Positions 9,048 through 49,607 of a DNA stretch of 56,296 nt are shown piece after piece. The stretch's first letter is position 1; the number at the start of each line of letters is the position of its first letter. The translations under genes were made by a program, and so were the position numbers. Under the pieces are notes generated by a model. It saw nothing but the letters and a program-made list of their open reading frames with translations. It did no database searches and was not told the DNA's origin. The stretch is taken from positions 1 to 56,296 of the forward strand of contig CAUJHK010000068.1 in assembly GCA_963204715.1 (NCBI GenBank). Direction: 5' to 3'. This DNA comes from Pseudomonadota bacterium. Its GTDB lineage: Bacteria; Pseudomonadota; Alphaproteobacteria; Micavibrionales; Micavibrionaceae.

Positions 9048-9081
9048 CCCTGCAGGTTTTAACAAAAAGGGCTTAAGTATC

Positions 9082-10344: not shown

Positions 10345-10353
10345 AAATGCAAA

Positions 10354-10379
10354 AGCGGGCTTTAATGCCCGCTTTTTTG
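10354..10379 (+). terminator. rho-independent terminator
   Basis: AGCGGGC-tttaat-GCCCGCT hairpin followed by TTTTTT, 10 nt after the stop. Confidence 0.65.
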
Positions 10380-10440
10380 TGCTGGTTCTCCTATCGCAAA
10401 TCCCTCTTTGAGAGGGCATTCCTTTTAAAATGGTGGCTTT

Positions 10441-10470
10441 TAATTTTTCAAGCTTTGAGCCATAAATTCC
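10441..10470 (-). repeat. fourth, degenerate copy of the toxin-tail core repeat
   Basis: The 21-nt core taatttttcaagctttgagcc (10441-10461) also occurs at 11006-11026, 11543-11563 and 12121-12141. It encodes (I)YGSKLEKL on the minus strand. No membrane-protein gene follows this copy. Confidence 0.7.
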
Positions 10471-10596: not shown

Positions 10597-10941
10597 TTAC
10601 TGTGTAGACGAATGCCTGAAAAGCATATTCATATTTTTTTTATACCAATAGTAACCGACATATGCAGCAGACAAAATGATTAAAAAGTCAAAAACAAAAT
10701 CAGTCCCTTCATGAGCATACATAAAATATAACCATGGTAAGTCCAAGATGGATTCTTGTGCTTCAAAATAATCTATTTTGTTATCGGAAGCTTTTAGAAC
10801 ATAATAAAAGAACGCCAAAAACCCATAGGCATGAAGAGTGCACGCACAACAAAACGCGTAAACAGGCCAGAAAGCCCTGACCCATTGCCATGAAAAAGAC
10901 TGGTGATAATGTTCCCGCAAACTAGCGTATGTTATCTTCAT
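10597..10941 (-). CDS. small predicted 2-TM membrane protein, paralog A of a candidate immunity family
   Basis: 114 aa. It shares SF(S/T)..W(V/L)..FWP.Y with the 11050 and 11616 ORFs and has aromatic-rich hydrophobic segments. ATG start. Confidence 0.6.
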   Translation of the reverse strand: MKITYASLREHYHQSFSWQWVRAFWPVYAFCCACTLHAYGFLAFFYYVLKASDNKIDYFEAQESILDLPWLYFMYAHEGTDFVFDFLIILSAAYVGYYWYKKNMNMLFRHSSTQ

Positions 10942-11041
10942 TTACGCCATTCCATTGAAACTTATGGTCTTTGATTGTTCCGCGTTCAAGTGAAACCTCA
11001 CCGTCTAATTTTTCAAGCTTTGAGCCGTAGATACTTTTGCA
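10922..11041 (-). repeat. orphan copy of the toxin 3' tail (39 codons + TAG)
   Basis: Translates to CKSIYGSKLEKLDGEVSLERGTIKDHKFQWNGVNEDNIR*. The toxin end reads KPFKIYGSKLEKLNGEVSLERGTIEDHKFQWNSVSERNLR*. It begins right after the paralog B stop. Confidence 0.8.
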
Positions 11042-11049
11042 CAAAAAAA

Positions 11050-11520
11050 TCAATGACAGAAAGGCATTGTATCTGTTTGATTACAAATCGCGACTGTGCT
11101 TATAAATTCGTATAAGTCGTATGTAAATTTCCAGTTCAAAACAAACGAAACAAGCATTATAAAAATGTAACCTACGGACGAAAAAACATATTTATATTTC
11201 TTTAGAATTAAAAAATAGAGACAAAATAAACAAGACAGGGCAATAAAAAATAACATAGGCCAGCTAAATACAAAATCAAAATTATAAATAAATATATCTG
11301 GAAAAAAAGTTGGATCATCTTCATTGTCCGTTAAAAAATAATGAAGAAAAAACAGGAAAGAGAACCTTTCCAAAAAAAATACTATCCAATACAAATAGAC
11401 TGGCCAAAAATGTTTCAGCCAGTCCAGTGTAAAAGAGGCACGGAAGTCAGATGTTATTTTAGCGTGAATCTGTTTCCAAGATAGGATTCCACCTAAACTT
11501 TTGATCCTTAATTGTTCCAT
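11050..11520 (-). CDS. predicted 3-TM membrane protein, paralog B of a candidate immunity family
   Basis: Shares FRASFTLDWLKHFWPVYLYW with paralog C. I use ATG 11520; the ORF track uses GTG 11538, which lies inside the repeat. Confidence 0.6.
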   Translation of the reverse strand: MEQLRIKSLGGILSWKQIHAKITSDFRASFTLDWLKHFWPVYLYWIVFFLERFSFLFFLHYFLTDNEDDPTFFPDIFIYNFDFVFSWPMLFFIALSCLFCLYFLILKKYKYVFSSVGYIFIMLVSFVLNWKFTYDLYEFISTVAICNQTDTMPFCH

Positions 11521-11602
11521 GCTCAATAGAAACCTCACCGTTTAATTTTTCAAGTTTTGAGCCCTGCACTTCAAAAGGTTTTGAATTAGGAATGTTTCGT
11601 AA
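11459..11602 (-). repeat. orphan copy of the toxin 3' tail (47 codons + TAA)
   Basis: Translates to LRNIPNSKPFEVQGSKLEKLNGEVSIEHGTIKDQKFRWNPILETDSR*. The toxin reads LRYIPGSKPFKIYGSKLEKLNGEVSLERGTIEDHKFQWNSVSERNLR*. It is bounded upstream by an in-frame TGA. Confidence 0.8.
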
Positions 11603-11615
11603 TCATTCTATCCCA

Positions 11616-12116
11616 TCATGTTGGAAAAGCACACAAGAGGGGCCAGACAGGCAAATCTGGGCAGACCAGTCTTTGATTTATAAACATATATACCCATTTT
11701 GAACAAAAACTGAATAGTGGATAGCCAAAAAATATACCTGTAAAATACAGATATGTTTGTAATGCTTGGCTATGCTTTTTGATCATTAAATAATAGCCAA
11801 CTTGTAAAAACGCTAAACACATTAAAAAATATATCAATATTTCAACTTCAGGATAATCTCTGTTTTTTGATGTCCAGGCAAAAACCTGAGATTTTCGGTC
11901 ATACGGCTTAAGGTGTTCAAAAAAAACATGCATACCTATAAGCGTTTTCGTAATACACGCTATCCAAAACAAGTAGGCTGGCCAAAAATGTTTCAGCCAG
12001 CCCAGTGTAAAAGAGGCTTTAAAATTCGCTTTTATTCTATCGCAAATTTCTTTCCGAGACAGAATTCCATTGAAACTTATGGTCTTCGATTGTTCCGCGT
12101 TCAAGTGAAACCTCAC
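11616..12116 (-). CDS. predicted 3-TM membrane protein, paralog C of a candidate immunity family
   Basis: 166 aa as called from GTG 12116, overlapping the last 80 nt of the toxin gene in another frame. No ATG lies near the toxin stop, so the true start is uncertain. Confidence 0.55.
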   Translation of the reverse strand: MRFHLNAEQSKTISFNGILSRKEICDRIKANFKASFTLGWLKHFWPAYLFWIACITKTLIGMHVFFEHLKPYDRKSQVFAWTSKNRDYPEVEILIYFLMCLAFLQVGYYLMIKKHSQALQTYLYFTGIFFGYPLFSFCSKWVYMFINQRLVCPDLPVWPLLCAFPT

Positions 12117-12684
12117 CGTTTAATTTTTCAAGTTTTGAGCCATAAATCTTAAATGGTTTTGATCCTGGAATGTACCTAAGCGCACCTAAGACTTTATCAT
12201 CTTTGTTATAATCATACACATCGTTAAAGCGATGATCGACAAGGCCATCTACCAAAACCTTATCGCCTTTTCGTGTCGCCTTCAAGGAACCTGTGGAGCG
12301 AAATTTAACGCGGCCTATCCCCAAACCTTGATCCTCATCAAAATTACGCAACCCCTCGGTAGCGCCAATATCTTGATCCCAATAATCAACACCGCCATCA
12401 ACGGCGGGATTCTTTAAAACAATAGACTCCCCATCCCGCAAACGTAGGATTTGGTCTTTGAAGGGGTGTTTTAGTCCATTCACCTCACCTTTGACCATGC
12501 TGTCTTCAAACCGCTTTTTATTATCAGCCGTCATGTAGCCATGGGGTTCAGGGGCTTGGTTAAGGTCATAAAGACCAAAGTGGCTTAATATTTTTTTGAC
12601 GCGCATTACATCGTCTGGGTTGTTTGTACGGTTGTTGCCCACATCAGCCTTAAGGATGCGGGAAGTCTGGTCAGAATTGGCCAT
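12037..12684 (-). CDS. 215-aa toxin-like protein: N-terminal peptidoglycan-binding-like module and a C-terminal domain with a weak colicin-M-like motif (hypothetical)
   Basis: ATG 12684 is preceded by ACAGGAG with a 7-nt spacer; the ORF track start at 12732 lacks an SD. No signal peptide. It is followed by the three membrane-protein paralogs, and its tail is copied three more times. Confidence 0.6.
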   Translation of the reverse strand: MANSDQTSRILKADVGNNRTNNPDDVMRVKKILSHFGLYDLNQAPEPHGYMTADNKKRFEDSMVKGEVNGLKHPFKDQILRLRDGESIVLKNPAVDGGVDYWDQDIGATEGLRNFDEDQGLGIGRVKFRSTGSLKATRKGDKVLVDGLVDHRFNDVYDYNKDDKVLGALRYIPGSKPFKIYGSKLEKLNGEVSLERGTIEDHKFQWNSVSERNLR

Positions 12685-12711
12685 GAAAAACTCCTGTAAA
12701 AGTGAAGATTT

Positions 12712-12750
12712 AAAAAATGAAAAAGCGCCCACAAGACGGACTTGGGGCGC
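12712..12750 (-). promoter_or_regulatory. GC hairpin plus T-run in the leader of the toxin-like gene (attenuator, or terminator of the upstream gene)
   Basis: The minus strand reads GCGCCC-14 nt-GGGCGC followed by TTTTTCATTTTTT. It lies between the candidate promoter and the SD. Confidence 0.35.
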
Positions 12751-12762
12751 ATACAGTGGAAT

Positions 12763-12791
12763 ATAATCCTATATATTTATAAAATTGTCAA
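12763..12791 (-). promoter_or_regulatory. candidate sigma70-type promoter of the toxin-like gene
   Basis: On the minus strand: TTGACA (12791-12786), a 17-19 nt AT-rich spacer, then GATTAT/ATTATA/TTATAT. Confidence 0.3.
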
Positions 12792-12887
12792 GGGCTTTGG
12801 GTGGGCCGTTTTTCTGGACTTGGCGTTGGATGGGGCGTGCCTTGCGCACTGGTGCATGCACAAAGACCTGCGCAAACATCTTTCAAA

Positions 12888-13274
12888 CTAATAGACATGT
12901 TCATCCCTTTCTATTCTGAACAGCGCGTTTTCAACGGACACGCCGCGTTGATTAAGATGGTAAAAAATAGCGTTAAATTTACCGTCCTCGTCTTTTTCAT
13001 TCACCACGCGGTATAACACCCGCGCCTTGGTTTCATGGCCAAGTTGCATCAGCGTTTTGCGGCCGTTCAAAAGCGATATCAGGTTTATGACTTTCTTTTC
13101 TGACAGCATAAAATCTTCAGAGGAATCCAAAACCGTATAATCCCCCACGGGCACAGGCTCCCCCGCCATATCGTCCGCATATTTCAAAACCATAAAGCCG
13201 CGGGGGTGAACGGGGCTTTTGGCGTAGGTATATATGGGCGAGGCCGCCTCTTGGTTAAAATCATTTGTCTGCAT
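12888..13274 (-). CDS. hypothetical protein, 128 aa
   Basis: An ORF at housekeeping-like G+C with no motif I recognise. It is divergent from ahcY and on the same strand as the toxin array, upstream of it. Confidence 0.5.
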   Translation of the reverse strand: MQTNDFNQEAASPIYTYAKSPVHPRGFMVLKYADDMAGEPVPVGDYTVLDSSEDFMLSEKKVINLISLLNGRKTLMQLGHETKARVLYRVVNEKDEDGKFNAIFYHLNQRGVSVENALFRIERDEHVY

Positions 13275-31819: not shown

Positions 31820-33273
31820 CGTTCGTTCATTGAGGAATCAAGCGTTTTAACAAACGGTTTCAAAATATATTCCATCACGGTTTTTTCGCCCGTCAAAATA
31901 TCAACCGTTGCCACCATTCCTGGGATGATGGGCAGCACTTCGCCTTTACGTTTTAGCGCGTTTTCTTGCGTAATGACGCGGACATGATAAAAGCTTTCGC
32001 CTTTTTCATCCGTCACGGCATCAGGCGATATCCCCACAACCTTGCCCTTTAGCCCCCCGTAAATAGAAAAATCATAGGCACTGATTTTGACCATCGCAGG
32101 CTGATCGGGATAAAGGAAAGCAATGTCTTTTGGCTTGATACGAACTTCAACCAAAAGCTGATCATCCTTGGGCACAATCTCAATAAAATCTTGCCCTGGC
32201 TGAACAACGCCGCCAACCGTATAAACCTTTAAATCTTTAATATAGCCATTCACGGGAGATTTAATCTCCGTGCGGTCTTTTTTATCTTCAAGCCCCACAA
32301 GACCTTTTTCAATAGAGCTCATCTCACTTGTTTTGGCGGAAAGTTCCATTTGTGATGTTGCGCGGGCAGAAGATTCAACATCACGAATGCGGGCTTCCGC
32401 TTCAGCAATGGCTGATCTTGCGCGTGGCATGGCGGCGTTTACGCTGTTTAGCTCTGTTTGTTTTTCTTTAACGGTGCGCTCTATTTGCAAGAGTTCCATC
32501 TTGGGCGCAGAACCTCTTGCAACAAGTGGCTCTACCATTGATTTTTCTTCATGTGCCAAGGAGAGCTGCCCGTTTAAATCACTGGATTTTATTTGAAGCT
32601 CGCTCAACTCTTGCGCCCGTTGTGATTTTTGCTGTTGTAGAATAATAGTCTGTCCATTGATTTTGTCCACATTGGCACGGTACGCAGCCATTTCTTCTGT
32701 TACCGCCTGTGGTGCTTTTTCCATGACATCAGCAGGAAACTCTGGGACTCTTCCTTCCACCTCCGCCTGCAGCCTTGCAATGGCTGCTTTTAAACCCAAA
32801 AGGCGGGCTTCGTTTGAGCCATAATCCGCGCTCGCCCCCACATCACGAAGGCGTACAACAATTTGCCCCGCCGTAACTTCATCGCCCTCTTTGACAAGAA
32901 TTTCATCTATAATTCCGCCTTCCAGAGAAGAAAGCTTTTGTATCTCTTTAGAGGGAATAACCTTTCCTTCTCCGCGCGTTGTCACTTCCAACTGTGCAAA
33001 ACTTGCCCAGACAAAAAACAAAAAAAAGAACGAACACACGGCAAACATAATAATATGTTTTGAGAGCGGTAAGTCTTCATCTGTTGCCAGAACACGATCA
33101 GCATGAGCTGCTGCTTTTTGCAGCTGGGCCTTCATCCACCCTTGACGTGCCTTATTAATGTTCTCATCTAACGTGGTTTGCTTGCCCCCATTTTTTTTGG
33201 CCATTTGGGCCTGCAAAAGTTTTGCAAGATTGGGGTCTTTTCCTTCAACGGTCCGAATCGGCTTTTGTGACAT
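31816..33273 (-). CDS. type I secretion membrane fusion protein (HlyD family)
   Basis: From ATG 33273, 4 nt after the ABC stop. One N-terminal TM segment, a long coiled-coil and C-terminal beta-barrel motifs (I.SPV.G.I....V.T.GGVV.PG). Confidence 0.9.
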   Translation of the reverse strand: MSQKPIRTVEGKDPNLAKLLQAQMAKKNGGKQTTLDENINKARQGWMKAQLQKAAAHADRVLATDEDLPLSKHIIMFAVCSFFFLFFVWASFAQLEVTTRGEGKVIPSKEIQKLSSLEGGIIDEILVKEGDEVTAGQIVVRLRDVGASADYGSNEARLLGLKAAIARLQAEVEGRVPEFPADVMEKAPQAVTEEMAAYRANVDKINGQTIILQQQKSQRAQELSELQIKSSDLNGQLSLAHEEKSMVEPLVARGSAPKMELLQIERTVKEKQTELNSVNAAMPRARSAIAEAEARIRDVESSARATSQMELSAKTSEMSSIEKGLVGLEDKKDRTEIKSPVNGYIKDLKVYTVGGVVQPGQDFIEIVPKDDQLLVEVRIKPKDIAFLYPDQPAMVKISAYDFSIYGGLKGKVVGISPDAVTDEKGESFYHVRVITQENALKRKGEVLPIIPGMVATVDILTGEKTVMEYILKPFVKTLDSSMNER

Positions 33274-33277
33274 GATG

Positions 33278-35578: not shown

Positions 35579-35612
35579 AGATGAACCCTTTGCAAAGGTT
35601 TGTAGGAGAAGC

Positions 35613-36986
35613 TTACTTTTCGACTTGTTTGTTTTTTACGTCGATAAGGCCTGTTTCTTCAGGATATGCCACACCCAGTGTTGAGAGCAGTTGACCCTTT
35701 AGAGCCAGAAGACGATAAACCGCAAAAATTTCTAAAAACTCTGCATTGATGGTGTTTGAACGGGACACAAACAATTCATTTTGTGAGTCCAGAACGTCCA
35801 ATAATGTACGGCGATCCAGGTTAAACTGGTCTTTGTACGCGCGTACAACCTCACCATTTGCAGCCGCCTGATTTCCAAATTCCTTGGCGCGCTCTCCAGA
35901 TGAAACCATTGACGCCCAGGTTTGGCGCACGTCATTTTCAATTTGACGGGCGGCCGATGCGCGCTCTTCTTTTGTTTGCTGATGACGGTGCTTGAATTCA
36001 CGCACGCGGGCAACGTCGCCGCCACCACGATACAAATTCCAGTTCATCACAACCAAAGCAGAGGCATTGTTAATCTCACCGTCTGAACCGCCAATGTCCT
36101 TACCATGTGATCCACCTAGCTGAAGATCAAACTTCGGGTAAAGGCTGGAGCCTGTGCCCTTATATTCATTATAGGCAACCTCAACGTCAGATTCGCGAAC
36201 ACTTAAAGTCGGGCTTTGCGCCAAAGCTGTTTTCACTTCAGCCTCAACATCAGCCGCTACTGCATTTACAGGAACTGCTGGCATTACTAGGTCTTTTGGC
36301 ATGTCGCCAACTTCTTGCTGGAATTTTGATTCCGCATTGCGAAGCTGTTCACGGACAGAGGATTCTTGTGCACGCGCAGAGGACAAACGCGCCTTGATTT
36401 GTTCAAGGTCAGCGGATGTAGAGCGGCCTGCATTCACGCCTTCTTCTATCATACCCATAATGGCCACATGTTCCGCCACGTTATCACGTGTGATAGAAAG
36501 CAATTCACGCTGGCGCATCACTTCCAGGAATGACTCAACGATGGACAGACCAGTGAATTCCGATGTTTCGCGTACGCGGTTGGCAGAAGACTGAACGCGA
36601 TTTTTCTGGCGTTCATTTTCATACTTTGTACCCCAACCATCGAACAGCATTTGTGTCAATGTCAGTTGCGTGTTGTAGCGTGTAAATGTTTTATCATCAT
36701 CGCCCGTGGCACGTGTGGATGGACTGTCTGTTCTTTCAAAGCCACCATCAGCACGCAAATCAATGGAAGGGAGGTACAGTGCCTTGGCTTGATTCAGCTC
36801 TTCGTCTGTTGCGCGGCGAGAGGCGGCCACGCGTCCATATTCAGGATTTGTCATGACACCAACAGAAACAGCCTGTCCCAAGCCCATTTCAGTGGGTTTT
36901 TGCTGCGCCAAAGCAAGGGAAGCGGGCATTGTGGAGAGTGAACCTGCTAATAGCAGCGCGGCAAATTTAAATTTTATGTTTTTCAT
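35613..36986 (-). CDS. tolC: TolC-family outer membrane channel of the type I secretion system
   Basis: From ATG 36986 the signal peptide reads MKNIKFKFAALLLAGSLSTMPASLALA. Two-fold repeated TolC-like helical/beta pattern, about 457 aa. Confidence 0.88.
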   Translation of the reverse strand: MKNIKFKFAALLLAGSLSTMPASLALAQQKPTEMGLGQAVSVGVMTNPEYGRVAASRRATDEELNQAKALYLPSIDLRADGGFERTDSPSTRATGDDDKTFTRYNTQLTLTQMLFDGWGTKYENERQKNRVQSSANRVRETSEFTGLSIVESFLEVMRQRELLSITRDNVAEHVAIMGMIEEGVNAGRSTSADLEQIKARLSSARAQESSVREQLRNAESKFQQEVGDMPKDLVMPAVPVNAVAADVEAEVKTALAQSPTLSVRESDVEVAYNEYKGTGSSLYPKFDLQLGGSHGKDIGGSDGEINNASALVVMNWNLYRGGGDVARVREFKHRHQQTKEERASAARQIENDVRQTWASMVSSGERAKEFGNQAAANGEVVRAYKDQFNLDRRTLLDVLDSQNELFVSRSNTINAEFLEIFAVYRLLALKGQLLSTLGVAYPEETGLIDVKNKQVEK

Positions 36987-37110
36987 CGTTGTACCTTTTT
37001 GGATATCATGCAAAATCAATGACTTTAGCCTGTTATTTATGGCCTTTTTTAGCGCGTGGCGCAAGTATTCGTTATGGTTATTTTTTGAAAAATTAAGTTC
37101 CGTAATATGA

Positions 37111-37140
37111 AAAAATGACGCGAGAATATACCTCGCGCCA
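37111..37140 (-). terminator. hairpin terminator after the LysM gene
   Basis: The minus strand reads GCGAGG-7 nt-CTCGCG followed by TCATTTTTT. Confidence 0.4.
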
Positions 37141-37150
37141 TTTTGAAAAA

Positions 37151-38563
37151 TTAAGCAATGTTAAAACCTAAAGCAGAAGGTGTTCTTACCATCGTCACCT
37201 TCTCTGAACGCTCGGGTGTTTCTGTGCCGCCCGTTGGGTGGTCGGTTTCTCCTGTTCCTTCCGATGGATGTTCAGTTTCGCCGCCACCTGGATTCTCCGT
37301 CCCTTCGTGGTTTGTCTCACCAGTGCCGCCGCCTGTTTCGCCGCCGTTATTGTCGCCTGGTCCTGGGGGATTGTGATCACCGCCACCGTTTTCACCGTCA
37401 ACATCTGGGTTGGGGCTACCGCCACCTCCGTCAGTACCACAGTGTTCTTTGCAGCCTCCTGTAGGAGGATCTACTGGCGGTGGCTCAACTGGAGGAGTGC
37501 GCGGTGTTGCCTCATGGTCTCCGCCTGTGTCACACTGGTTTTTAGGGTTACCCCAAACGGTTTTAATAACAATTTTTCCATTTTCCATTACCAGCTTTAC
37601 TCTGCTGAAAGGCTGGTCTGCACAACCACAGCGTTCTTCAAACTTTTTGGCCAGAGGTATGGAGTAAAGCCTGTTACCAGATTTCACCAACTCGCACTGC
37701 TTGGGCATTGTTACGACTGGTGTAGAAACGCTTGGTGTATTAACTGTTTGCACAGGTTTGTGAACAATACGACGCGTTCCTGTGCAGTAGTCTTTGTATA
37801 GTTTGTCTTCTTTTTTATTAAGTTCTCCGACATCCGTTAAATCAAGCGTTTGGCCAGCGCTTAATTCATACGGCGCTCCCAAAGCTGGATTGTGTGCAAC
37901 AATTCCATCAAATGATTTGTTTTCCGCGCGCACCACATCACACAAGCCATCTCCCGACTTCACTTCATATGTGTTTGTGGCTGCAGGAGGCGTTGCGGCA
38001 GGAGCAGCCGCTACAACAGGTTTTGCCTTGGGAACAGGAGAAGATGTTAAACCCTGTGGCGCCACAACAGCCGCTTGTTCAGGCGCGCATGTTTCACACT
38101 TTTGCCCTTCTTGAAAGGCTTCCAGCTTTTCCTGTGCCATAAGTGCCTTTACATCCGCCGTCAGATCAGCATGTTCAGCTTCAACCTCCTGTGCCCAGTA
38201 TTCCAGCTTTGATTTATCGTCACATGGTTCTGCGGCAGGCGCTTCTGCCGTTGTTGCTGCAACCATAACAACGTTTTCTATAGTTTTTGGTATAACAAAA
38301 ACTTGACCCACTTTAATCGTGTCCACATTTTTGATTAAATCTGCATTCGCGTCCTGAATTTTTTCTGGCGTTGTCTGGATATCCAGTTTTGCCAGTTTGA
38401 GAACAATTTTCGAAAGACTGTCACCAGACTGAACCGTTATAGTCCCTTTGTCCTTATCAATTTTGGCCGCCTCGGCCTGCTCGGCTGTTGCAAAAAGTCC
38501 AGCCATGGCGACCACTGCAGACGCCGCGATATAACGTAATTTTTGTGTGAGTTTTCCAAACAT
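37151..38563 (-). CDS. secreted protein with two LysM domains and a Pro- then Gly/Glu/Thr-rich low-complexity C-terminal region
   Basis: From ATG 38563: a signal/anchor (YIAASAVVAMAGLFATAEQAEA), LysM 1 (ITVQSGDSLSKIV...VGQVFVIP) and LysM 2 (YEVKSGDGLCDVV...SAGQTLDL). The tail reads PPVEPPPVDPPTGGCKEHCGTDGGGG... Confidence 0.7.
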   Translation of the reverse strand: MFGKLTQKLRYIAASAVVAMAGLFATAEQAEAAKIDKDKGTITVQSGDSLSKIVLKLAKLDIQTTPEKIQDANADLIKNVDTIKVGQVFVIPKTIENVVMVAATTAEAPAAEPCDDKSKLEYWAQEVEAEHADLTADVKALMAQEKLEAFQEGQKCETCAPEQAAVVAPQGLTSSPVPKAKPVVAAAPAATPPAATNTYEVKSGDGLCDVVRAENKSFDGIVAHNPALGAPYELSAGQTLDLTDVGELNKKEDKLYKDYCTGTRRIVHKPVQTVNTPSVSTPVVTMPKQCELVKSGNRLYSIPLAKKFEERCGCADQPFSRVKLVMENGKIVIKTVWGNPKNQCDTGGDHEATPRTPPVEPPPVDPPTGGCKEHCGTDGGGGSPNPDVDGENGGGDHNPPGPGDNNGGETGGGTGETNHEGTENPGGGETEHPSEGTGETDHPTGGTETPERSEKVTMVRTPSALGFNIA

Positions 38564-38634
38564 GTTCGTAAATTCCTCTCGTGATTTCACTCTTCAGGCA
38601 CGTTATGCTTAACAATATGTAAACATTTGGTGCA

Positions 38635-38663
38635 TTTATATGACTCTTGGCAAAAAATTGCAA
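38635..38663 (-). promoter_or_regulatory. candidate promoter of the LysM gene
   Basis: On the minus strand: TTGCAA (38663-38658), a 17-nt spacer, then TATAAA (38640-38635). Confidence 0.3.
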
Positions 38664-38718
38664 GGTTTTTATTGAAAACAACGGTCAAAAATTATGGTTC
38701 TACCCAAACCTGCTGGCA

Positions 38719-38749
38719 ATAAAAAACGGGGTAAAAACCCCGTTTTTTC
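38719..38749 (-). terminator. rho-independent terminator of the RTX adhesin gene
   Basis: AACGGGG-taaaaa-CCCCGTT with A/T runs on both sides, 15 nt after the stop. Confidence 0.6.
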
Positions 38750-38763
38750 AAATTGTTATAAAG

Positions 38764-41700
38764 TTAAGCAATAATACTGCCGTTGTTAAACAAGTCTGTG
38801 ACCGTCACATTCACACCATCTAGCACTGCCACGGCTGTCGCCCCAGCAAGTCCCGTCCCGGCATTGTTGACCAAAATGGTTGTGTCAGCACCGCTATGCG
38901 TTGCAAAGACGAAATTATTGATAGCGTCGGTAACAGGATCAAAGCTCGTCAAAACATTCGACAATTCCAGCTTATCACCTTGAGAGGTGTTGAAGTCCTT
39001 AATATGATCAAGACCTTCATTAATGGCCATAAACCAGAATGTGTCTGCACCAGCACCGCCAGTCAAAATATCATTGCCTTTTCCGCCTATGATGTGATCA
39101 TTCCCCGTACCACCAAGAATGGTGTCAACACCATCATTGCCGTATAGGGAATCATTCTCTGTGCCGCCATCAATGTAATCATTGCCTTTTCCACCCGAGA
39201 TATAATCATCTCCAGCTTCACCGTACAGCTTATCATTACCGCCGTATGTTTCGCTTCCGCCAGCATCGCCGTAAAGATCATCATTGCCTGTGCCACCATA
39301 GATAGTGTCATCACCTTCACGACCAGTAATAACATCCGCTCCGACATCACCATGGACAGTGTCGTTTCCTAAACCAGCGTTGATATCATCATTGCCGTTG
39401 CCGCCGTTGATGATGTCGTTTCCATCTTCACCCCACAGCCAGTCATCTCCATCATACCCATTGATGGTATCACCCACAGATGTTCCGTGAATGACATCAC
39501 CGCCAGAGCTTCCATCAATAGGCGTTCCTGCCGTGTAGTTCAGGATGTTTATCTGCAGGCTCTGTGTATCAGTATCACCATCAAAATCCGCAATCGTTAC
39601 TGCGAAGTTCAAGGATGTTGTAGGAAGTTCTTTGTGGGTCAACGTGTATGTATAATCACCATTGGCCGCAACCACCAGAATGCCTTCAGGTGTTGTTAAC
39701 GAGGCCGTTCCTGTTAAGGGAACGTTCACCGTTGTTGTACCAAAGGAAACTGATTTAACACGACCAGGCGTATCCTGCCCGATAAGGCCTGTTGATATAT
39801 CATTCGCCAATATGTTCGAAGACACAGACCCCTGATATACAAACAAGGTGCAGGAATCTGCAAGAGCATCTGGCGCATCATCCTTGACGTTGACCGTAAT
39901 CGTCGTGCTCGCCGTATCGCCATCCGTGTCCGTCGCCACCACACCAAAGTTCAGGGTGATGATATCGTTCGGGTTCGATCCATCCGCATGATCCAGCTGT
40001 TCAAACTGGCGGTACGTATAAGACCCGTCATTGCCAATGCTCAGCGTAAACACCGTCTGGGTGCCTGCCTTGCCTGTGTAAACGCCGTTCGCATAGCTCA
40101 CCACCACGCCCACACCGCCAGAGCTCAACGCTCCGCCCAGCTTCGAGCCCGTTGAGGTAAACACATTGTTACCAGCAATCGTACCAGGACCATCATCTCC
40201 AAAGTCCGCACTCACAGACCCCGTCTTCACAATCGCGCCAGACGACAGGCTCGTCTCGTCCACAACATCCGCTGCAGGCGTGATAATCATCGGGATGGTA
40301 TCACCGTCTTGAACCTGTATGGACAAGATGGCTGTATCGCTATCTCCATCATAGTCTTTGAGCGTGTACGTAAAGTTGTCCGTACCATCCGCATTCAGGG
40401 CCTTCGAGCTATAGCTGTAAGCGCCCGTGCTGTTGATGGTCAGTGTCCCATACGTGCCATTAATCACAACATTCCCGCTTAAAGGGACAACCGTTGTCAC
40501 GCCGTTGAACACCACTTGCGTAATCTTGCCAGCAACATCCTGACCCACAGCATCATTGCTCATCACATTGCCGCTGATGGTCGCTTCTTCGCCCATCGTA
40601 CGGCTGTCATTCACAGCATCTGGCGCATCATCCTTGACGTTGATGCGAATAGAGCCAGTAACGGAATCGCCCTCAAAGTCTGAGGCAATGACAGCGAAAT
40701 CCAGTGTAATCACGTCATTTGGATTGGCGCCATCGGCATGATCCAAAGGTTCAAGCAATGTAAATTTGTAATCGCCTGTGGCGGATGTAAGCTCTAGCGT
40801 AAAGACGGTTGTGCCATTGGCTTTACCAACATAAACACCATTTTCAATGGTTACCACGACTGGTACGCCACCCGATGTCAATGCGCCATTTAGTTTTGAG
40901 CCGCTGGAGGCAAAACCGCTATCTTTAAATGCGTAAGATCCTGGTGTGTCTGCCCCGAAATCCGCGTTCAGCTTCCCTGTTTCCACGATTGGACCAAGAT
41001 TGGTTTCATCAACCGTTTCCAGACCATGATCTGGACGCGGACCATCATTTTGGAACGTAGGAGCATCATCTTTAACATTGATGATGATTGGCGCTGCCGC
41101 AGTGTCGCCATCAAAGTCCGTGACTTTTGCGCCAAAGCTCAACGTGATGATGTCATTTGCGTTTGAGTTGTCGGCGTGGTCAAGATTCCCATATTGAGTG
41201 TAAGTGTACGCACCCGTTGATGGATTTATTGTCAGCGTAAAGACCGTTACGCCGCCCGCTGTGCCGACATATCCATTTGCTGTTGCAGTAACAATAACAG
41301 GTACGCCACTGGACGTTAGCGCAGAATTTTTCAAAGAGCCTGATGCTGTAAAGTCATTCGAAGGTGTTACGCTGCCAGCGCCATCCTGACCAAAGCTTAC
41401 TACCAGAGTGCCTGTTTCCACGATTGGACCCAGATTGGTTTCATCAACCGTTTCCGTTGCGCCTGCAATGCTAGGTGCATCGTCCAGCACACCAATTTTA
41501 ATGGTGGTGGAAACAGTATCACCGTCACTGTCACTGGCAACAATTCCGAAATCCAGCGTTATCACGTCATTTGGATTGGCGCCATCGGCATGATCCAAAG
41601 GAAGATATTGGGTAAATGTATAACTGCCAGTAATGGGATTGATAACAAGATCAAACACCTTCTCACCGCCTGCCGTTGTACCCACATAGCCATTGCCCAC

Positions 41701-42888
41701 AACACTCACCGTTACGGCATCACCGTTGGATGTCAGCGCGCCGCCCAGCTGGGAGCCGCCTGATACAAAAGAGCCATTGGGAGAAATACCGCCAGGGCCA
41801 TCGGAGCCAAAGTCAACAGTTACGTTTCCTGAAACAGATGTAGAGCCGCCAGACAAATTGGTTTCATCCACCCTTCTTCCATCTGGATCAATCAAGCTTG
41901 GAGATCCATCAGGCGCAGGTGTTGGTGTTTCTGGTGTTGTGAAAAATTGTAAAGGCGTAAGTGTAGGCGCGACATAGCCAAGCTGCGTTGGATTGATGGG
42001 CCCGATATCAGCATTGGTGGCAAACGGATTCAAATCTGGACGGCTTCCAAAACCATAGCCAGAATTGGCACGGCCACCCGCTGCCTGATTCCCCGCGGCT
42101 GTTTCAATGTTGGCCAGATCTTTTGCCGATGGTTCATCGCCAGCGGCCGTTTCAATTTTATTCAGGTCTTTTCCTTTAAAGGTCTGGGCTGTTTTATGCG
42201 AAGGCCCAGCGTCATCTTGCCCATCCATATCTGCCGCGGCAAGTTTTGATTTTGGCTTGGTTTCCTCAATGGCCTCTTCTTTAACAACAACAATATTGTT
42301 ATCATTATTGGCTTGTGCCAAGTTTTGAATATTCGTGATAAGATCATCACCATCAACAACGCAAACCTTGCTCGCGATGCTTAGCTCAGGAGGGGTTGCC
42401 GAAGCCATGGCTGTTTCATAATTGTCTATAACAATTTTTCCGCCATTGGCGAAAGAGATAACCATCTTTCCATCTTTCATATCCGCGCCTTGCGTTTGTG
42501 AAAGATCGAAATCAAACATATATTTTTTGCCTGGCTCCAGAGTAATATTGCTTTGAGCATTTTCAGCAGGAACACCAATTTTTACAATATCGCCGCCTGT
42601 TTGAGAATCTTCCTTACCGCCAAGAGCTGTAAAAAGAAGTTTTGGATCTACGACTGTTCCATCGGATAAAGAAAGCGTATTTCCATTGTCTATAAATGAT
42701 TGAAAGTTTGTCAGCGTTACATTTCCGCCTTCAACAAAGCTAATGACCAAACCACCATTACCATCAAGGCGAAGCCCGTCCACATCTTCTGGTGCGAAGG
42801 AAAGCTTTGCTGATTCACTTGCAGGCAGCGTATAATTTACCGCTGTATCTACCCCTGGAACTGCAAGAATAATGTTGTTGGTTGCCAT
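38764..42888 (-). CDS. large LapA-like RTX adhesin, type I secretion substrate (1374 aa)
   Basis: An N-terminal duplicated retention-like module, four ~140-aa VDETNL...LDHADG.NPND...DGD...KDDAP repeats, VCBS-like segments, about 12 GGxGxD nonapeptides, and a C-terminal GGAGADTFWF...IKDF...GDKLELS secretion domain. Confidence 0.9.
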   Translation of the reverse strand: MATNNIILAVPGVDTAVNYTLPASESAKLSFAPEDVDGLRLDGNGGLVISFVEGGNVTLTNFQSFIDNGNTLSLSDGTVVDPKLLFTALGGKEDSQTGGDIVKIGVPAENAQSNITLEPGKKYMFDFDLSQTQGADMKDGKMVISFANGGKIVIDNYETAMASATPPELSIASKVCVVDGDDLITNIQNLAQANNDNNIVVVKEEAIEETKPKSKLAAADMDGQDDAGPSHKTAQTFKGKDLNKIETAAGDEPSAKDLANIETAAGNQAAGGRANSGYGFGSRPDLNPFATNADIGPINPTQLGYVAPTLTPLQFFTTPETPTPAPDGSPSLIDPDGRRVDETNLSGGSTSVSGNVTVDFGSDGPGGISPNGSFVSGGSQLGGALTSNGDAVTVSVVGNGYVGTTAGGEKVFDLVINPITGSYTFTQYLPLDHADGANPNDVITLDFGIVASDSDGDTVSTTIKIGVLDDAPSIAGATETVDETNLGPIVETGTLVVSFGQDGAGSVTPSNDFTASGSLKNSALTSSGVPVIVTATANGYVGTAGGVTVFTLTINPSTGAYTYTQYGNLDHADNSNANDIITLSFGAKVTDFDGDTAAAPIIINVKDDAPTFQNDGPRPDHGLETVDETNLGPIVETGKLNADFGADTPGSYAFKDSGFASSGSKLNGALTSGGVPVVVTIENGVYVGKANGTTVFTLELTSATGDYKFTLLEPLDHADGANPNDVITLDFAVIASDFEGDSVTGSIRINVKDDAPDAVNDSRTMGEEATISGNVMSNDAVGQDVAGKITQVVFNGVTTVVPLSGNVVINGTYGTLTINSTGAYSYSSKALNADGTDNFTYTLKDYDGDSDTAILSIQVQDGDTIPMIITPAADVVDETSLSSGAIVKTGSVSADFGDDGPGTIAGNNVFTSTGSKLGGALSSGGVGVVVSYANGVYTGKAGTQTVFTLSIGNDGSYTYRQFEQLDHADGSNPNDIITLNFGVVATDTDGDTASTTITVNVKDDAPDALADSCTLFVYQGSVSSNILANDISTGLIGQDTPGRVKSVSFGTTTVNVPLTGTASLTTPEGILVVAANGDYTYTLTHKELPTTSLNFAVTIADFDGDTDTQSLQINILNYTAGTPIDGSSGGDVIHGTSVGDTINGYDGDDWLWGEDGNDIINGGNGNDDINAGLGNDTVHGDVGADVITGREGDDTIYGGTGNDDLYGDAGGSETYGGNDKLYGEAGDDYISGGKGNDYIDGGTENDSLYGNDGVDTILGGTGNDHIIGGKGNDILTGGAGADTFWFMAINEGLDHIKDFNTSQGDKLELSNVLTSFDPVTDAINNFVFATHSGADTTILVNNAGTGLAGATAVAVLDGVNVTVTDLFNNGSIIA
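39031..39513 (-). repeat. RTX Ca2+-binding nonapeptide repeat block (coding)
   Basis: 161 aa of tandem G-G-x-G-x-D-x-[LIVY]-x units (GGNGNDDIN, GGTGNDDLY, GGKGNDYID, GGTGNDHII, GGKGNDILT and others). Confidence 0.9.
39871..41871 (-). repeat. four ~140-aa protein repeats (T1SS-143-type) with stretches of identical DNA
   Basis: Repeats begin at residues ~340, 480, 626 and 875. The DNA string gcatctggcgcatcatccttgacgttga recurs near 39860 and 40615. The string atcacgtcatttggattggcgccatcggcatgatccaaagg recurs near 40708 and 41561. Confidence 0.85.
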
Positions 42889-46323: not shown

Positions 46324-46353
46324 TTGACTTCCCACATATGATATGATTATAAT
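46324..46353 (+). promoter_or_regulatory. near-consensus sigma70-type promoter
   Basis: TTGACT (46324-46329), an 18-nt spacer, then a perfect TATAAT (46348-46353). Confidence 0.5.
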
Positions 46354-46363
46354 CCTATTATAT

Positions 46364-46392
46364 AGAGGCGCATTGCGCCTTTTTTCTTTTTA
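46364..46392 (+). terminator. intrinsic-terminator-like hairpin inside the 5' leader (possible attenuator)
   Basis: GGCGC-att-GCGCC (46367-46379, extendable by A-T/G-U pairs) followed by TTTTTTCTTTTT. It lies between the promoter and ATG 46418. No upstream plus-strand gene exists for it to terminate. Confidence 0.45.
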
Positions 46393-46417: not shown

Positions 46418-47063
46418 ATGCCCTTATTTAACAATCTGGCGCCGCTTTTGCGCGCGCCCGTAGGTAACAACCTCAAAAATAGTCCCGAAGATGTCCAGAA
46501 CCTAAAACGCAACCTGTCAAAAACTGGCCATTATAAAACCCCCATTGAAAATGGGTACATTGACCAGAAGCTTGATGATGGGATCAAGAACTTTCAGCGT
46601 AAAAAACAATTTAAAAATCGATGGTATCGCCAAACCAGGCGGGGAGACTGAAGCCGCATTGGTAAGCACACTGATGAAATTACCGAAACCAAAATCATCA
46701 AAAGAAGATGAAAAATACGGTTATCAAACCGCCAGTGTCATCCCACTTCTGGGGATATTAGGCCTAGGCCTGGGAATGTCCGCCGCAGGCGCTGCGCAAT
46801 GGTGGATGAGCGAAAACAATGCAGACAAGCGTGAAAAAATTCTAAAATCTTTTCAAAAATCTGATGAAAGCACGTCACCCCACCCAGACAACGACTCTTG
46901 TTATGACGAATATGAACGTGATATTAATGAATGCAAGCGCGTGGGGAAAAGTTTAAACTACCGTGCACAAAAAGCGTGTGAGGAAACGGCAATTTTAAGA
47001 TATACACAATGTATAAAAAATATACCGCCAAAAGAAAGGCGCAATTTACAGACAGAATTTTAG
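46418..47063 (+). pseudogene. peptidoglycan-binding-domain protein with a central TM helix and a Cys-rich C-terminal domain; reading frame broken by a +1 shift in an A6 run
   Basis: Frame A (46418-46651) gives ...DDGIKNFQRKK and then an early stop. Frame B continues NNLKIDGIAKPGGETEAAL..., which completes a PG_binding_1-like pattern. The junction is AAAAAA at 46601-46606. Confidence 0.6.
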
Positions 47064-47070: not shown

Positions 47071-47511
47071 ATGAAAATATCTAATAAATATCTTTATGTC
47101 TTTTTAGAGGACGCGCTTACCAATCCGCATTTGCGGTTTGATCTTCACCTAAAACCAAGACCAGATACAAGAGCGTCATACGCAAAAACGGCTTTTGAGT
47201 CGCTTGAGAAACAACAAGCTCTTAATGCTTTTGAAAGAGTTCAGGATGCAGGATTTTGGTGTTTATCAAGACTTCTAAACAAGCGAGGAATTCTAGAAGG
47301 AAAACTGCGCGGCATGATTGTTAGTGCCAATTTCGATGAACCATCCATTATCATTGATGAGTGGATACATAAAGATTATAAGGGCGGAGAATTTCATACA
47401 TTTCTTCCCCTGCCGCCGTTTCCTGAAGATTTAGATTTGGACGACATCAGCATCGATCCGCTTTTGAACATGCGGGTAGGACGTATAATTCTCAACGCTC
47501 TTTTGAATTAA
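47071..47511 (+). CDS. hypothetical cytoplasmic acidic protein, 146 aa (possible cognate or immunity partner)
   Basis: Starts 7 nt after the previous stop. AT-rich, with no signal peptide or TM segment and no domain I recognise. Confidence 0.45.
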   Translation: MKISNKYLYVFLEDALTNPHLRFDLHLKPRPDTRASYAKTAFESLEKQQALNAFERVQDAGFWCLSRLLNKRGILEGKLRGMIVSANFDEPSIIIDEWIHKDYKGGEFHTFLPLPPFPEDLDLDDISIDPLLNMRVGRIILNALLN

Positions 47512-47608
47512 ATTTTATGGCGACACTAATATGATAGGGCAGATTGACATTACTCCCACATGCAAGCATTTTAAAACATTACCAACAACTCCAACCGCAA
47601 GGCATGTT

Positions 47609-48376
47609 ATGAAATTATATTTTTATCTTCTATCCCTCGTAATCTTTATGGCCATCACGCCAGCGATGGCAAAAAGCACAACCTGTTCCGATCTTCCTGA
47701 TCAAACCGCTTTAAAAACTGCCCTTACAGAGGCCAGAAAAACTGACAATGGTGGACTTAATCTTGATATGTGGGGCACGATTGTTGATCGTTCAGGCACC
47801 GTTTGTGCCATCGCATACACAGGTGAGTCTGAAGATTCACAATGGCCAGGAAGCCGCATTATCTCCGCACAAAAAGCAAACACTGCCAACGCCTTCAGCT
47901 TGAAAGGATTATCTCTTTCCACGGCCAACCTGTATTCCGCCGTTCAACCAGGTGGTTCTTTGTTTGGCCTGCAAGAAAGCAACCCCGTGGATATTAATGT
48001 TGCCTATAAGGGCAAAGCAAAATCTTTTGGCACGCCGTCTGATCCATTGGTCGGAGCGCGCATAGGCGGGGTTAATGTGTTTGGCGGAGGCTTGGCCTTA
48101 TACAATGATGCGGGCGACATTGTTGGTGCTTTGGGTGTATCTGGCGATACATCTTGCGCAGACCATAATATTGCATGGCGCACGCGCGGAGCACTAAACC
48201 TTGATTATGTTCCGGGCGGTGTGGCTGCAGATAAGTCCGACACCATCATTTATGATATTAAGGCAGGAAAAAGCACTGGTGGTTTTGGCCACCCCACCTG
48301 CGGTGGAAAGGAAGACACTATAGCGGCGTCTTTGTCTAAAGTTCGCGCCGTTGCGAAATCCGAAGAAAAGAAATAA
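47609..48376 (+). CDS. secreted GlcG/HbpS-like (DUF336) protein
   Basis: From ATG 47609 the signal peptide reads MKLYFYLLSLVIFMAITPAMA. Motifs IVDRSGTV.A, SR.ISAQKANTA.AFS and GG.ALY...G.IVGALGVSG are typical of DUF336. Confidence 0.65.
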   Translation: MKLYFYLLSLVIFMAITPAMAKSTTCSDLPDQTALKTALTEARKTDNGGLNLDMWGTIVDRSGTVCAIAYTGESEDSQWPGSRIISAQKANTANAFSLKGLSLSTANLYSAVQPGGSLFGLQESNPVDINVAYKGKAKSFGTPSDPLVGARIGGVNVFGGGLALYNDAGDIVGALGVSGDTSCADHNIAWRTRGALNLDYVPGGVAADKSDTIIYDIKAGKSTGGFGHPTCGGKEDTIAASLSKVRAVAKSEEKK

Positions 48377-48428: not shown

Positions 48429-49607
48429 TTACGCCGCCTTGGCGGATTGCTCACCCTTCGCGGCCTCATACGCCCAGTCAAGCCACGGCATCAGCGCGGC
48501 CATGTCGGAAGATTCCACTGTTGCGCCGCCCCAAATACGCAGACCCGCTGGCGCATCACGGTATGAAGCTATGTCATAGGCAACCGCCTCTTTATCAAGC
48601 GGCTTTATCATCCCCTTGATGAAACTTTGACGCGCCTCGTCATCCATGGCCAAAAACCATGGATCTTTAACAGCCAACGTAATTGATGTGCGAGAGCGTA
48701 TCGCATCATCTTTGCACAAGAACTCCGCCCAGTTTGACGTTTTCGTCCATGTTGCAACAGCCTGATAGTTGGCTTCAGAGCGGGCAATGGTTGCTTTCAG
48801 GCCGCCTATAGATTCAACCCATTTTAGCGCATCAAGACAGTCTTCCACGCACATCATGGACGGTGTGTTGATGGTTTCAGCCTAGAAAATACCTTCGGCC
48901 AGTTTGCCCCCTTTTGACATGCGGAATAGTTTTGGCAGCGGACGGTTTGCAGGCTTGAAAGATTCAAGACGGGCTACCGCACGGGGTGACAACACAATCA
49001 TCCCATGGCCGCCTTCTGATCCTAAAACCTTTTGCCAGCTCCAAGTGGTTACATCCAATTTGTCCCATGGCATATCATACGCAAAGACTGCGGATGTGGC
49101 ATCGCAAATAGTAACCCCTTCACGGTCAGCCGCTATCCAATCACCGTTCGGAGCACGAACGCCTGATGTTGTGCCATTCCATGTAAACACAACATCACGG
49201 GTTTTTGTATCAACGGATTTCAAATCAGGAATGTCACCATACGCGGCCTTTATCACGCGCACATCTTCCAGTTTTAATTGGTTGGTTGCATCGTTTGCCC
49301 ATTCCAGACCAAAGGCCTCCCAATGCACCATATCCACGCCACGCGCACCAAGCATGGACCACATGGCCATTTCCACCGCGCCTGTGTCCGAGGCCGGCAC
49401 AATCGCTATTTTATAATCGGCGGGTATGCCCAAAAGCGCGCGATGGCGATCACACACCTCTTGAATTTTCTCTTTGCCCTTTGCCGCGCGGTGCGAACGA
49501 CCCAAAAACGCATCTTTTAAGGCCTCCACACTCCATCCCGGGCGCTTGGCGCAAGGACCAGAAGAAAAACAGGGGTTTACGGGTTTGGCTGTGGGTTTGG
49601 ATGTCAT
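48429..49607 (-). pseudogene. serC: phosphoserine aminotransferase interrupted by a single in-frame TAG
   Basis: ORFs 48882-49607 and 48429-48857 are in the same frame. Joined across TAG (48882-48884) they read ...[31 protein letters not shown]..., colinear with alphaproteobacterial SerC. Confidence 0.85.

Follow-up and report, generated by a model that had tools for sequence, protein, structure and literature searches.

What does it mean that two unlinked genes of one bacterium start with the same short protein module and then continue into unrelated proteins? The question is raised by a stretch of 56,296 nucleotides (the window; positions 1 to 56,296 of contig CAUJHK010000068.1, GenBank assembly GCA_963204715.1, a Pseudomonadota bacterium of the Micavibrionaceae), which carries gene A (12037..12684, minus strand, 215 aa) and gene B (starting at 46418, plus strand). 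An initial annotation, made from the DNA letters alone, had read the shared N-terminal module, here called the head, as the hallmark of a polymorphic effector family. We followed this up by profile searches and by comparison with related loci, and we consider it probable that genes A and B belong to a large family of modular, bacteriocin-like effectors, in which head, promoter and leader are constant, the variable tails would act on the cell envelope, and protective partner proteins would co-vary with the tails.

The shared N-termini were borne out by BLASTP of gene A against gene B (18/42 identical and 27/42 positive residues, E = 5e-7, residues 10-48 versus 10-51), and nothing significant was found outside this 42-residue stretch. 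The claim that there is no similarity beyond this region is thus true, but it turned out to be an effect of damage. The only relatives of gene A in 5.8 billion proteins are P0002 and P0003 (288 aa), both with a full PG_binding_1 domain, and alignment with them indicated that gene A has lost 73 residues in frame, namely the second half of the domain and the linker, so the similarity within the window ends after about 45 residues. What is left in gene A is a head remnant of codons 1-54 (12523..12684, minus strand) with the N-cap and first helix of a PG_binding_1-type domain, and the head hidden Markov model (HMM) matches positions 1-54 only. When the full-length heads of both families were aligned, orthologues included, the alignment covered 88 residues with 21 invariant columns (G16, N17, N18, N21, D25, K30, G37, Y39, Y50, I59, F62, Q63, L68, K69, D71, G72, P76, G78, E79, T80 and E81). 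The head HMM gave scores of 95 and 67 bits, and a six-frame scan of the window with it found genes A and B as sole head bearers, with no third copy.

In gene B the lesion is a frameshift. ORF1 of gene B (46418..46651, plus strand) encodes the PG_binding_1-type head as far as helix 2, then runs out of frame after a run of six adenines (A6; 46601..46606, plus strand) and ends in NFQRKKQFKNRWYRQTRRGD and a stop codon. Relative to all orthologues, this run carries a one-base insertion (+1 frameshift). The string ...NFQRKNNLKIDGIAKPGGETEAAL had been quoted as one continuous module, and the PG_binding_1 pattern seen in it was right, but it is not one reading frame, since one A had been silently dropped from the A6; the rest of the quoted text is carried by an ORF in the +1 frame (46545..47063). 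With one A removed, gene B encodes 214 aa and matches ten intact relatives of 214-240 aa from end to end (49-70% identity, 100% query coverage). The extra A is also present in four independent assemblies (L019-L022) that are 99.98-100% identical to the window, which means that it is a real mutation of the lineage and not an assembly slip. A programmed +1 frameshift at the A6 was considered and dropped, as the site has neither a slow codon nor a stimulatory element and the orthologues read through it in frame; we treated it as a mutation. An AlphaFold2 model of gene B placed helices at residues 23-35, 46-62 and 76-85, with a mean pLDDT of only 59 from a shallow alignment; the model of P0002 reached a pLDDT of 54, with the head below 50, again from a shallow alignment.

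The PG_binding_1 assignment was checked against the Pfam profile (PF01471). Frameshift-corrected gene B scored 41.3 bits against a gathering cut-off of 23 (E = 1.8e-10) and the gene A orthologue P0002 scored 26.4 bits; window gene A, with half the domain deleted, gave no match. All family members scanned (104/104) were positive. The initial annotation had named an ordinary PG_binding_1 domain as an outcome that would speak against it, and formally the head is indeed a member of this Pfam family. In substance it is not ordinary: this subfamily has its own cap at residue 1 (phi-x-x-PVG-N/G-N/G-x-x-N-x-P-x-DV) and its own ending (PGGETE), and it always starts at about residue 1-30 without a signal peptide. 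Gene A and gene B products likewise lack a signal peptide, as had been stated.

To see how far the head reaches, the suggested HMM search was run exhaustively on 1.84 billion representative proteins, and it retrieved 4,034 matches at E <= 1e-3, 1,117 at E <= 1e-10 and 32 at E <= 1e-30. Tails and architectures were counted in the best 150 of the 4,034 matches plus earlier matches, 161 pooled proteins altogether. In 120 of these 161, the head stood at residue 1-30 in one or two tandem copies, without a signal peptide, in proteins of 103-897 aa; the rest were secreted proteins with 5-11 generic repeats. The 114 head bearers with tails of at least 40 residues fell into 42 BLAST clusters among the matches listed. 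The largest cluster (n = 29, single linkage) includes the gene A tail, and an iterated profile of that tail recognised 9 of its members; the second (n = 22) includes the gene B tail, so the window tails are the two commonest classes among the matches listed. Few tails had a Pfam match, namely GH108, Peptidase_M23, Phage_lysozyme (GH24), DUF6973, PG_binding_3 and DUF2380 (L011), and one SLT-like match was weak and sub-threshold. A GH108 assignment for the L015 tail was discarded, because it was a motif resemblance only and Pfam did not confirm it. At several loci of the family the neighbours carry a signal peptide, as expected of periplasmic immunity proteins. A DNA pattern derived from the head proved too narrow and found one locus each in the genome and metagenome collections and none in viral contigs.

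The locus of gene A gave the clearest view of how tails are exchanged. In relatives it is flanked by ahcY on one side and rapZ/chvG on the other; the window AhcY shares 86-89% identity with those of L015 and L001. In the sister strain L002, nucleotides 1-224 are 98.7% identical to window positions 12746-12523 (leader plus first 54 codons), and then the sequences diverge: L002 has a complete head, its tail matches the gene A tail only over the last ~280 nt at 74% identity, and its last 133 nt are 97% identical to an orphan toxin tip (tip 2) in the window. At the same ahcY site in L015, promoter, hairpin and head recur but lead into an unrelated 447-aa protein with a secreted 177-aa neighbour; further downstream L015 carries an orphan gene of the window type for a protein with three transmembrane (TM) helices.

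Downstream of gene A, in the window, lies an array of such remnants, all on the minus strand. Partner 1 (11616..12116), whose 5' end overlaps the end of gene A, is a multi-TM protein with a FTLGWLKHFWPAYLFW motif and a C-terminal Cys pair and is the candidate cognate immunity protein; by hydropathy and homology it is related to partner genes in L001, L015 and L009, and it has no family match. It is followed by tip 2 (11459..11602), the last ~41 codons of a different allele of the gene A tail, ending in SKPFEVQGSKLEKLNGEVSIEHGTIKDQKFRWNPILETDSR and a stop (tail HMM E = 9e-12; protein identical to the P0003 tail), and by partner 2 (11050..11538), a 3-TM paralogue and candidate orphan immunity protein that is 70% identical to the second partner gene of L001. 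Tip 3 (10922..11053), ending in IYGSKLEKLDGEVSLERGTIKDHKFQWNGVNEDNIR and a stop, is 94% identical to the gene A tip (tail HMM E = 5.6e-7), and partner 3 (10597..10941) is a shorter membrane-partner paralogue of 114 aa (BLASTP E of about 1e-7 to partners 1 and 2). A truncated fourth copy of the tip, IYGSKLEKL (10439..10467), marks the end of the array beside a terminator at 10351-10376. The toxin tip (last ~35 codons) therefore occurs four times at a spacing of 537-578 nt, and copies 1-3 are each followed by a paralogous multi-TM protein; the membrane proteins of the array carry the motif FTLxWLKHFWPxYLxW. In addition, a 14-bp perfect inverted repeat, TGGGCTGGCTGAAACATTTTTGGCCAGCCTA, lies at 11974-12004 and 11396-11426 (minus strand), inside partners 1 and 2 at their GWLKHFWPA motif. 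It was terminator-like by scan and may be a coding coincidence.

Pairing of tail and partner was also seen elsewhere. The gene A tail, called CTD-A below, is paired with a multi-TM partner in the window, L001, L008 and L009, and in L012 the partner has one TM helix and a periplasmic domain. Other pairs were a GH24 tail with a signal-peptide partner (L013) and a DUF2380 tail with a 237-aa repeat protein. Thus, the outcome that no variable C-termini and no small partner genes would be found clearly did not occur: many tail classes exist, and tails and partners change together. The gene A locus thus combines a head that stays constant with tails that are exchanged, partners that change with them and cassettes left as orphans, which is the pattern that defines polymorphic toxin/immunity systems. 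In L009, the cassette of P0018 (head, CTD-A, partner) is flanked by 9602-9919 and 12371-13078, which translate as NSWFVLRILGEWLPGPDS and look like the 3' part of a tRNA; these flanking copies suggest an islet of about 3 kb inserted at a tRNA, with no integrase visible. The same locus has a 184-aa ORF (11478-12032) between P0018 and the 3-TM partner, with an N-terminal TM helix and an end, ITNPEFRWEDTGG, that resembles the tip of CTD-A; this ORF could represent either a fused orphan or a second, degenerate allele of the tail.

CTD-A itself (12037..12522, minus strand, about 160 residues) is predicted to be a beta-rich domain with an invariant D-x-Y-(D/N)-F, and an iterated profile found it in at least 9 family members, at 23-72% identity to the P0002 tail. 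No match was obtained in Pfam, PHROG, NCBIfam or PDB sequences. The most conserved block, G-x-x-K-x-x-S-x-G-x-L-x-A-x-R-x-G-D-x-x-x-x-x-G-x-x-x-H-x-x-x-D-x-Y-D-F, resembles the active site of colicin M (ColM), ...TEGTLTISANGSWTYNGVVRSYDDKYDFN, which made CTD-A a candidate distant relative of this lipid II-degrading toxin. When CTD-A was compared by hhalign with a 4-sequence ColM alignment, P was 3.9e-5 over 130 columns; with an 8-sequence alignment of the ColM catalytic domain the score was 29.5 and E was 6.5e-4. The HH probability was only 27-43%. As a control, 80 column shuffles gave a mean score of 12.8 (sd 2.4, maximum 25.1), and 0/80 reached 29.5. A ColM HMM built here matched 7/9 CTD-A sequences in the same region (best E = 4e-6; window gene A E = 6.7e-6, both in a 9-sequence database), and two catalytic residues of colicin M, D226 and Y228, line up with D129 and Y131, which are invariant in CTD-A. 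The similarity is weak but above chance, and we would give an even chance to the gene A tail being a distant ColM-like domain.

Gene B presents a different picture downstream of its head. The continuation in the +1 frame (46607..47063, plus strand) encodes the last head helix (LKIDGIAKPGGETEAAL), a linker, one TM helix, a helical hairpin with twin Cx10C and a proline-rich end, of which the motif is GxP…RR…Q in the window and near relatives and W/LPPL in more distant members. The relatives of gene B are syntenic and adjoin serA (serA and serC in the Micavibrio metagenome-assembled genome (MAG) L007); the window SerA shares 77% identity with its counterpart in an uncultured Micavibrio MAG. The gene is followed by a partner gene (47071..47511, plus strand) for a 146-aa protein of pI 5.8 with neither signal peptide nor TM helix. 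This partner evolves faster, with 32% identity to the L003 partner (E = 4e-15) versus 53% for the gene B proteins, and the L003 partner in turn matches that of L018 (E = 4e-6), so a homologous cytoplasmic partner follows gene B in all three loci with the window-type tail (window, L003 and L018). In L007 the gene B tail has diverged, and the adjoining gene is instead a DUF6968 gene on the opposite strand. The small genes found 3' of both gene A and gene B have no match to any family, in line with the initial annotation.

That annotation had also described both genes as lying in AT-rich inserts with strong promoters, and this held: the GC content of the cassettes is 36.8% and 40.3% versus 47.9% for the whole window, and both genes have near-consensus sigma-70 promoters. 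The gene A promoter (12756..12796, minus strand; TTGACA-17-GATTAT, 10/12 by promoter scan) has its -35 box followed by a palindromic operator-like site, TATAGGATTATATTCC, that overlaps the -10 box. The gene B promoter (46324..46359, plus strand; TTGACT-18-TATAAT, 11/12), found by motif search and by alignment with the region upstream of gene A, lies inside the palindrome ATGATTATAATCCTA. Between promoter and ribosome-binding site, gene A has a 5' leader (12712..12750, minus strand; found by terminator scan) with a GC-rich hairpin and a T-run (RNA fold -18.5 kcal/mol, z = -3.1), and gene B has a terminator-like hairpin with T-run at 46364..46392 (plus strand). The latter cannot terminate serA, a gene that is read the other way, with its transcription leading away from the hairpin. 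The order promoter, palindrome over the -10, GC-rich hairpin with T-run and ribosome-binding site is common to genes A and B, L001, L003, L007 and L015, and the motif upstream of gene A is kept in these four loci. The palindrome consensus is TAGGAT-N4-ATCCTA, with the -10 within it; the 18-mer motif occurs in the window upstream of genes A and B only, where 0.01 matches are expected by chance. The hairpin sequences vary by locus and the layout is constant (L001, L015), and a comparable hairpin lies 5' of the distant family member L010. An Rfam scan of the leader gave nothing at the gathering score and chance-level matches at a relaxed E-value. We infer a shared, tightly controlled regulatory cassette, in which repressor or antitermination control would co-regulate both genes. 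Head and upstream region together place gene B in the same family and, as predicted from these sequences, the same regulon as gene A. The lesions inside both modules and the homology that reaches into promoter and leader had been overlooked at first.

How proteins without a signal peptide would leave the cell is the next question. The window was said to show no type VI secretion system (T6SS), type VII secretion system (T7SS) or contact-dependent inhibition (CDI) genes, and none is linked to the two genes, but a type I system, complete and accompanied by an RTX adhesin, lies at 31.8-42.9 kb and had been missed in that listing of absent systems. The cluster (31816-42888, minus strand) comprises HlyD (31816-33378), ABC (33278-35578) and TolC-like (35613-37064) genes and adjoins a LysM protein and a 1,374-aa RTX/cadherin/DUF5801 protein, which is its likely substrate. 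It resembles the hemolysin and type I secretion cluster of Micavibrio aeruginosavorus, a species for which type I and II secretion, no evidence of type III or IV, and "peptidoglycan binding proteins" on genomic islands have been reported (PMC3189940). A double-glycine leader for the neighbouring type I ABC exporter was considered and rejected, since VGNN/VGNG is how PG_binding_1 canonically begins, rather than a site of GG cleavage. No known trafficking domain was found in the head-bearing proteins scanned. In L013 (9519-13091), which comes from another bacterium, P0061 (head plus intact GH24 lysozyme) and a signal-peptide neighbour lie between fliQ-fliR-flhB and flgB-flgC-fliE. Flagellar type III export was dropped as unsupported, because this is a single case with an intact lysozyme and a signal-peptide neighbour, and the insertion looks incidental. 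The head may serve retention on peptidoglycan in the target periplasm, or import or export.

Putting these data together, the favoured reading would work as follows. The constant part would be an N-terminal PG_binding_1-type head, in one or two copies from residue 1 and without a Sec signal, to which promoter, operator-like palindrome and terminator-like leader would be added in this lineage; the variable part would be a C-terminal domain acting on the cell envelope together with a co-varying protective partner. Gene A would be a toxin whose tail is probably very distantly colicin-M-like, directed against lipid II or some other target on the periplasmic side of the inner membrane, and the downstream 3-TM proteins would be its immunity proteins. 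Its locus would have been remodelled by tail replacement, with orphan tip-plus-immunity cassettes left behind. Gene B, with the same head, a membrane anchor, a disulfide-type twin-Cx10C hairpin and a fast-evolving cytoplasmic partner, would probably be a second effector or accessory pair of the same regulon. Since both heads are damaged (in-frame deletion in A, frameshift in B), the system may be decaying or partly disabled in this strain. The first reading thus appears largely right in kind (shared head, variable tails, partners), though it is supported only in part. Its polymorphic effector family stands with regard to the shared head, unrelated tails, family size, co-changing partners and orphan cassettes; it is not supported for gene B, the tail of which is conserved among relatives, and a targeting or trafficking role of the head is at most a candidate function.

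Several points weigh against this. The gene B tail is conserved and not variable across 18 members, including two-head proteins, and has no toxin-like match, and its partner is cytoplasmic. Many tails of the family are only coiled coils. No secretion or import machinery was linked to any of about 15 loci examined, and in particular no T6SS (vgrG, hcp, PAAR), type IV secretion system (T4SS), CDI or T7SS gene. As for colicin M, the H235/R236 pair of its DxYD(x5)HR motif is not conserved in CTD-A, and R236 has been described as an essential catalytic residue of ColM; none of the nine CTD-A sequences matched Pfam Colicin_M (PF14859) even at E <= 10, a CTD-A profile search of the PDB retrieved no ColM structure, and Foldseek with the low-confidence P0002 model returned no ColM but only NTF2-like folds at E > 0.1, which were not trusted. 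One CTD-A member, P0143, stands in a T7-like phage (L008) immediately behind the tail-fibre gene, in a position that one would expect a holin to occupy, which makes a lysis role possible. Finally, given the damage to both copies in the window, none of this has to be functional.

The lysis role leads to the first of the other explanations, which is that these are phage-derived lysis cassettes, with modular endolysins as head bearers, holins as multi-TM partners, and promoter plus leader terminator as a late antitermination unit, domesticated for autolysis, protein release or prey attack. Weak PHROG endolysin matches (confined to the head region), the GH24, GH108 or M23 tails of some members, the position of P0143 between a tail-fibre gene and a 3-TM gene, and a terminator between promoter and gene that recalls phage late control all fit this. 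However, neither window tail matches any muralytic family, and the L008 phage has a separate endolysin (Hydrolase_2). The partners have no holin match, and in several a terminal Cys pair suggests that the C-terminus is periplasmic. Immunity genes, unlike holin genes, typically form tandem arrays with fragments of the upstream gene and have their alleles replaced at a housekeeping locus. Moreover, the window, L001, L003, L007, L012 and L015 have housekeeping synteny without phage context, only L008 being phage, and tblastn of P0143 against 50,697 phage records, and also against plasmid records, found no match. So we regard a lysis origin as unlikely. A lysis cassette of a gene-transfer agent was also considered and found no literature support, and no such genes were seen. 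If the proteins were instead contact-dependent effectors, delivered by a type VI, type IV or similar secretion system whose genes lie elsewhere, with the head as loading or adaptor domain, they would follow the same effector/immunity logic as the favoured reading, and PG_binding_1 has been reported at toxin N-termini, fused to VgrG and stand-alone in gammaproteobacterial vgrG loci (PMC10673891). But no vgrG, hcp, PAAR, T4SS or CDI gene lies beside any locus examined (56 kb of this genome is visible), and the secretion systems reported for M. aeruginosavorus (PMC3189940) are of types I and II, with no evidence of type III or IV, which leaves this quite unlikely.

Ordinary envelope housekeeping would make the head a generic peptidoglycan anchor, an old domain common to two otherwise unrelated proteins of envelope structure or remodelling. 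Gene B is where this is most plausible: gene and partner are conserved and syntenic among relatives at 50-70% identity at a fixed site by serA, the tail is kept in distant members, and PG_binding_1 is common in housekeeping hydrolases. Yet a periplasmic anchor that lacks a signal peptide is hard to envisage, and a promoter, operator and leader common to both genes point to one regulon under tight control. The gene A locus has tail swapping and orphan cassettes, the cassettes of both genes are AT-rich islands, and gene B is frameshifted in a lineage sampled five times and is therefore dispensable. For the two genes together we think this very unlikely. A chance or compositional match of two unrelated short N-termini has only the shortness of the window alignment (42 residues) in its favour; it is refuted by the pairwise E-value (5e-7), the 88 residues with 21 invariant columns, the HMM scores (95 and 67 bits) and the homology of the upstream DNA, and is next to inconceivable. 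The effector reading also has a bolder form, in which the head is the address label of an unrecognised export or import route that serves dozens of classes of effectors aimed at the envelope, in Micavibrio-like predators as well as in other bacteria, TAGGAT-N4-ATCCTA and an antiterminated leader would join them into one regulon, and CTD-A would found an alphaproteobacterial lipid II-degrading branch. This form we hold to be doubtful, though not fanciful.

Compared with known systems, the family is a variant of modular bacteriocin/polymorphic toxin systems and not a new category. With polymorphic toxin systems (Zhang, Aravind et al. 2012; Rhs, CdiA, MafB) it shares the constant N-terminus, exchangeable C-terminal domains, an adjacent co-varying candidate immunity gene, downstream orphan tip-plus-immunity cassettes after tail displacement, and AT-rich islets. 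It differs in that all that stays constant in the protein is a PG_binding_1-type domain of 70-90 residues, in one or two copies from residue 1, in place of a long stalk or a recognised secretion domain, in that promoter and leader are part of the constant cassette, and in that no recognisable trafficking domain or linked secretion system was seen at the loci examined here; in the 2012 survey, PGB1 was given only as an accessory adhesion domain. T6SS effectors with PG_binding_1 at the N-terminus of diverse toxins (Commun Biol 2023, PMC10673891) are similar in this arrangement, but those stand in vgrG loci and were reported to be limited to gammaproteobacteria, whereas the hosts here are alphaproteobacteria-like and no T6SS gene is linked.

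The colicin M family (ColM, pyocin M, pectocin M, burkhocin M) is likewise modular, without a signal peptide, with a C-terminal killing domain of about 150 residues and a D-x-Y-D-F core, with a neighbouring multi-TM or membrane-anchored periplasmic partner, and with swapped N-terminal modules (a ferredoxin domain in pectocins). Immunity proteins of colicin M vary in topology, among them Cmi, PmiA with four TM helices and BmiA with three (PMC5821083), and when compared by topology, the 3-TM partners here are like BmiA/PmiA and the L012 partner, with one TM helix and a periplasmic domain, is like Cmi. In contrast, the similarity of CTD-A is profile-profile only, the H-R pair is missing, the N-terminus is a peptidoglycan-binding domain, and the hosts are Micavibrio-like alphaproteobacteria. 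One abstract describes colicin M-like bacteriocins as characterised in gamma- and beta-proteobacteria, and the term "Alphaproteobacteria" was absent from the ColM papers searched. Modular endolysins of Gram-negative phages (KZ144 or EL188 type) combine an N-terminal PG_binding_1 with a C-terminal muralytic domain. The present family resembles them in its N-terminal PG_binding_1, the lack of a signal peptide, an adjacent small membrane protein and some GH24/GH108 tails, and is unlike them in its window tails, which are non-muralytic by profile, its chromosomal housekeeping synteny, its orphan arrays and its allele replacement.

If the favoured reading is true, a large effector family of at least 1,100 sequence clusters at E <= 1e-10 and more than 40 tail classes, mostly unannotated, would be marked by a small peptidoglycan-binding head, and no description of this head family was found in the full-text literature searched. 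The head HMM at residue 1 would then be a handle to mine envelope-targeting toxins and their immunity proteins, colicin-M-like toxins may extend to the alphaproteobacteria, and candidate prey-killing factors would be at hand in an epibiotic predator lineage. It would also pose the question of how signal-less, periplasm-acting proteins exit the producer, the same as for colicin M, the release mechanism of which is itself unknown. If the reading fails, the two genes would be damaged cell-wall-binding proteins of little consequence.

Some neighbouring genes should also be recorded. Beside the orphan array, a 441-aa protein (9019-10344, plus strand) has a signal-like N-terminus, a run of nine glycines and no Pfam match; its C-terminal tail, VPLPLGGG followed by a hydrophobic stretch and RLRKK, resembles a PEP-CTERM-type sorting signal. 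Between ahcY and the head gene lies a conserved ORF of 127-128 aa (window 12888-13274, minus strand; L015 9379-9762), which was not called in L001 and has no Pfam match. Directly 3' of the gene B partner, in the same AT-rich stretch, a secreted HbpS-like protein of the haem-degrading family is encoded (281 aa; 47531-48376, plus strand), and its gene is also present in the near-identical assemblies L019-L021. The serC gene (48429..49607, minus strand) has an in-frame TAG at 48882-48884 where relatives have Lys, which splits the phosphoserine aminotransferase gene. L019 (99.98% identical) has an intact serC of 392 aa, so the TAG appears to be private to the window assembly or isolate.

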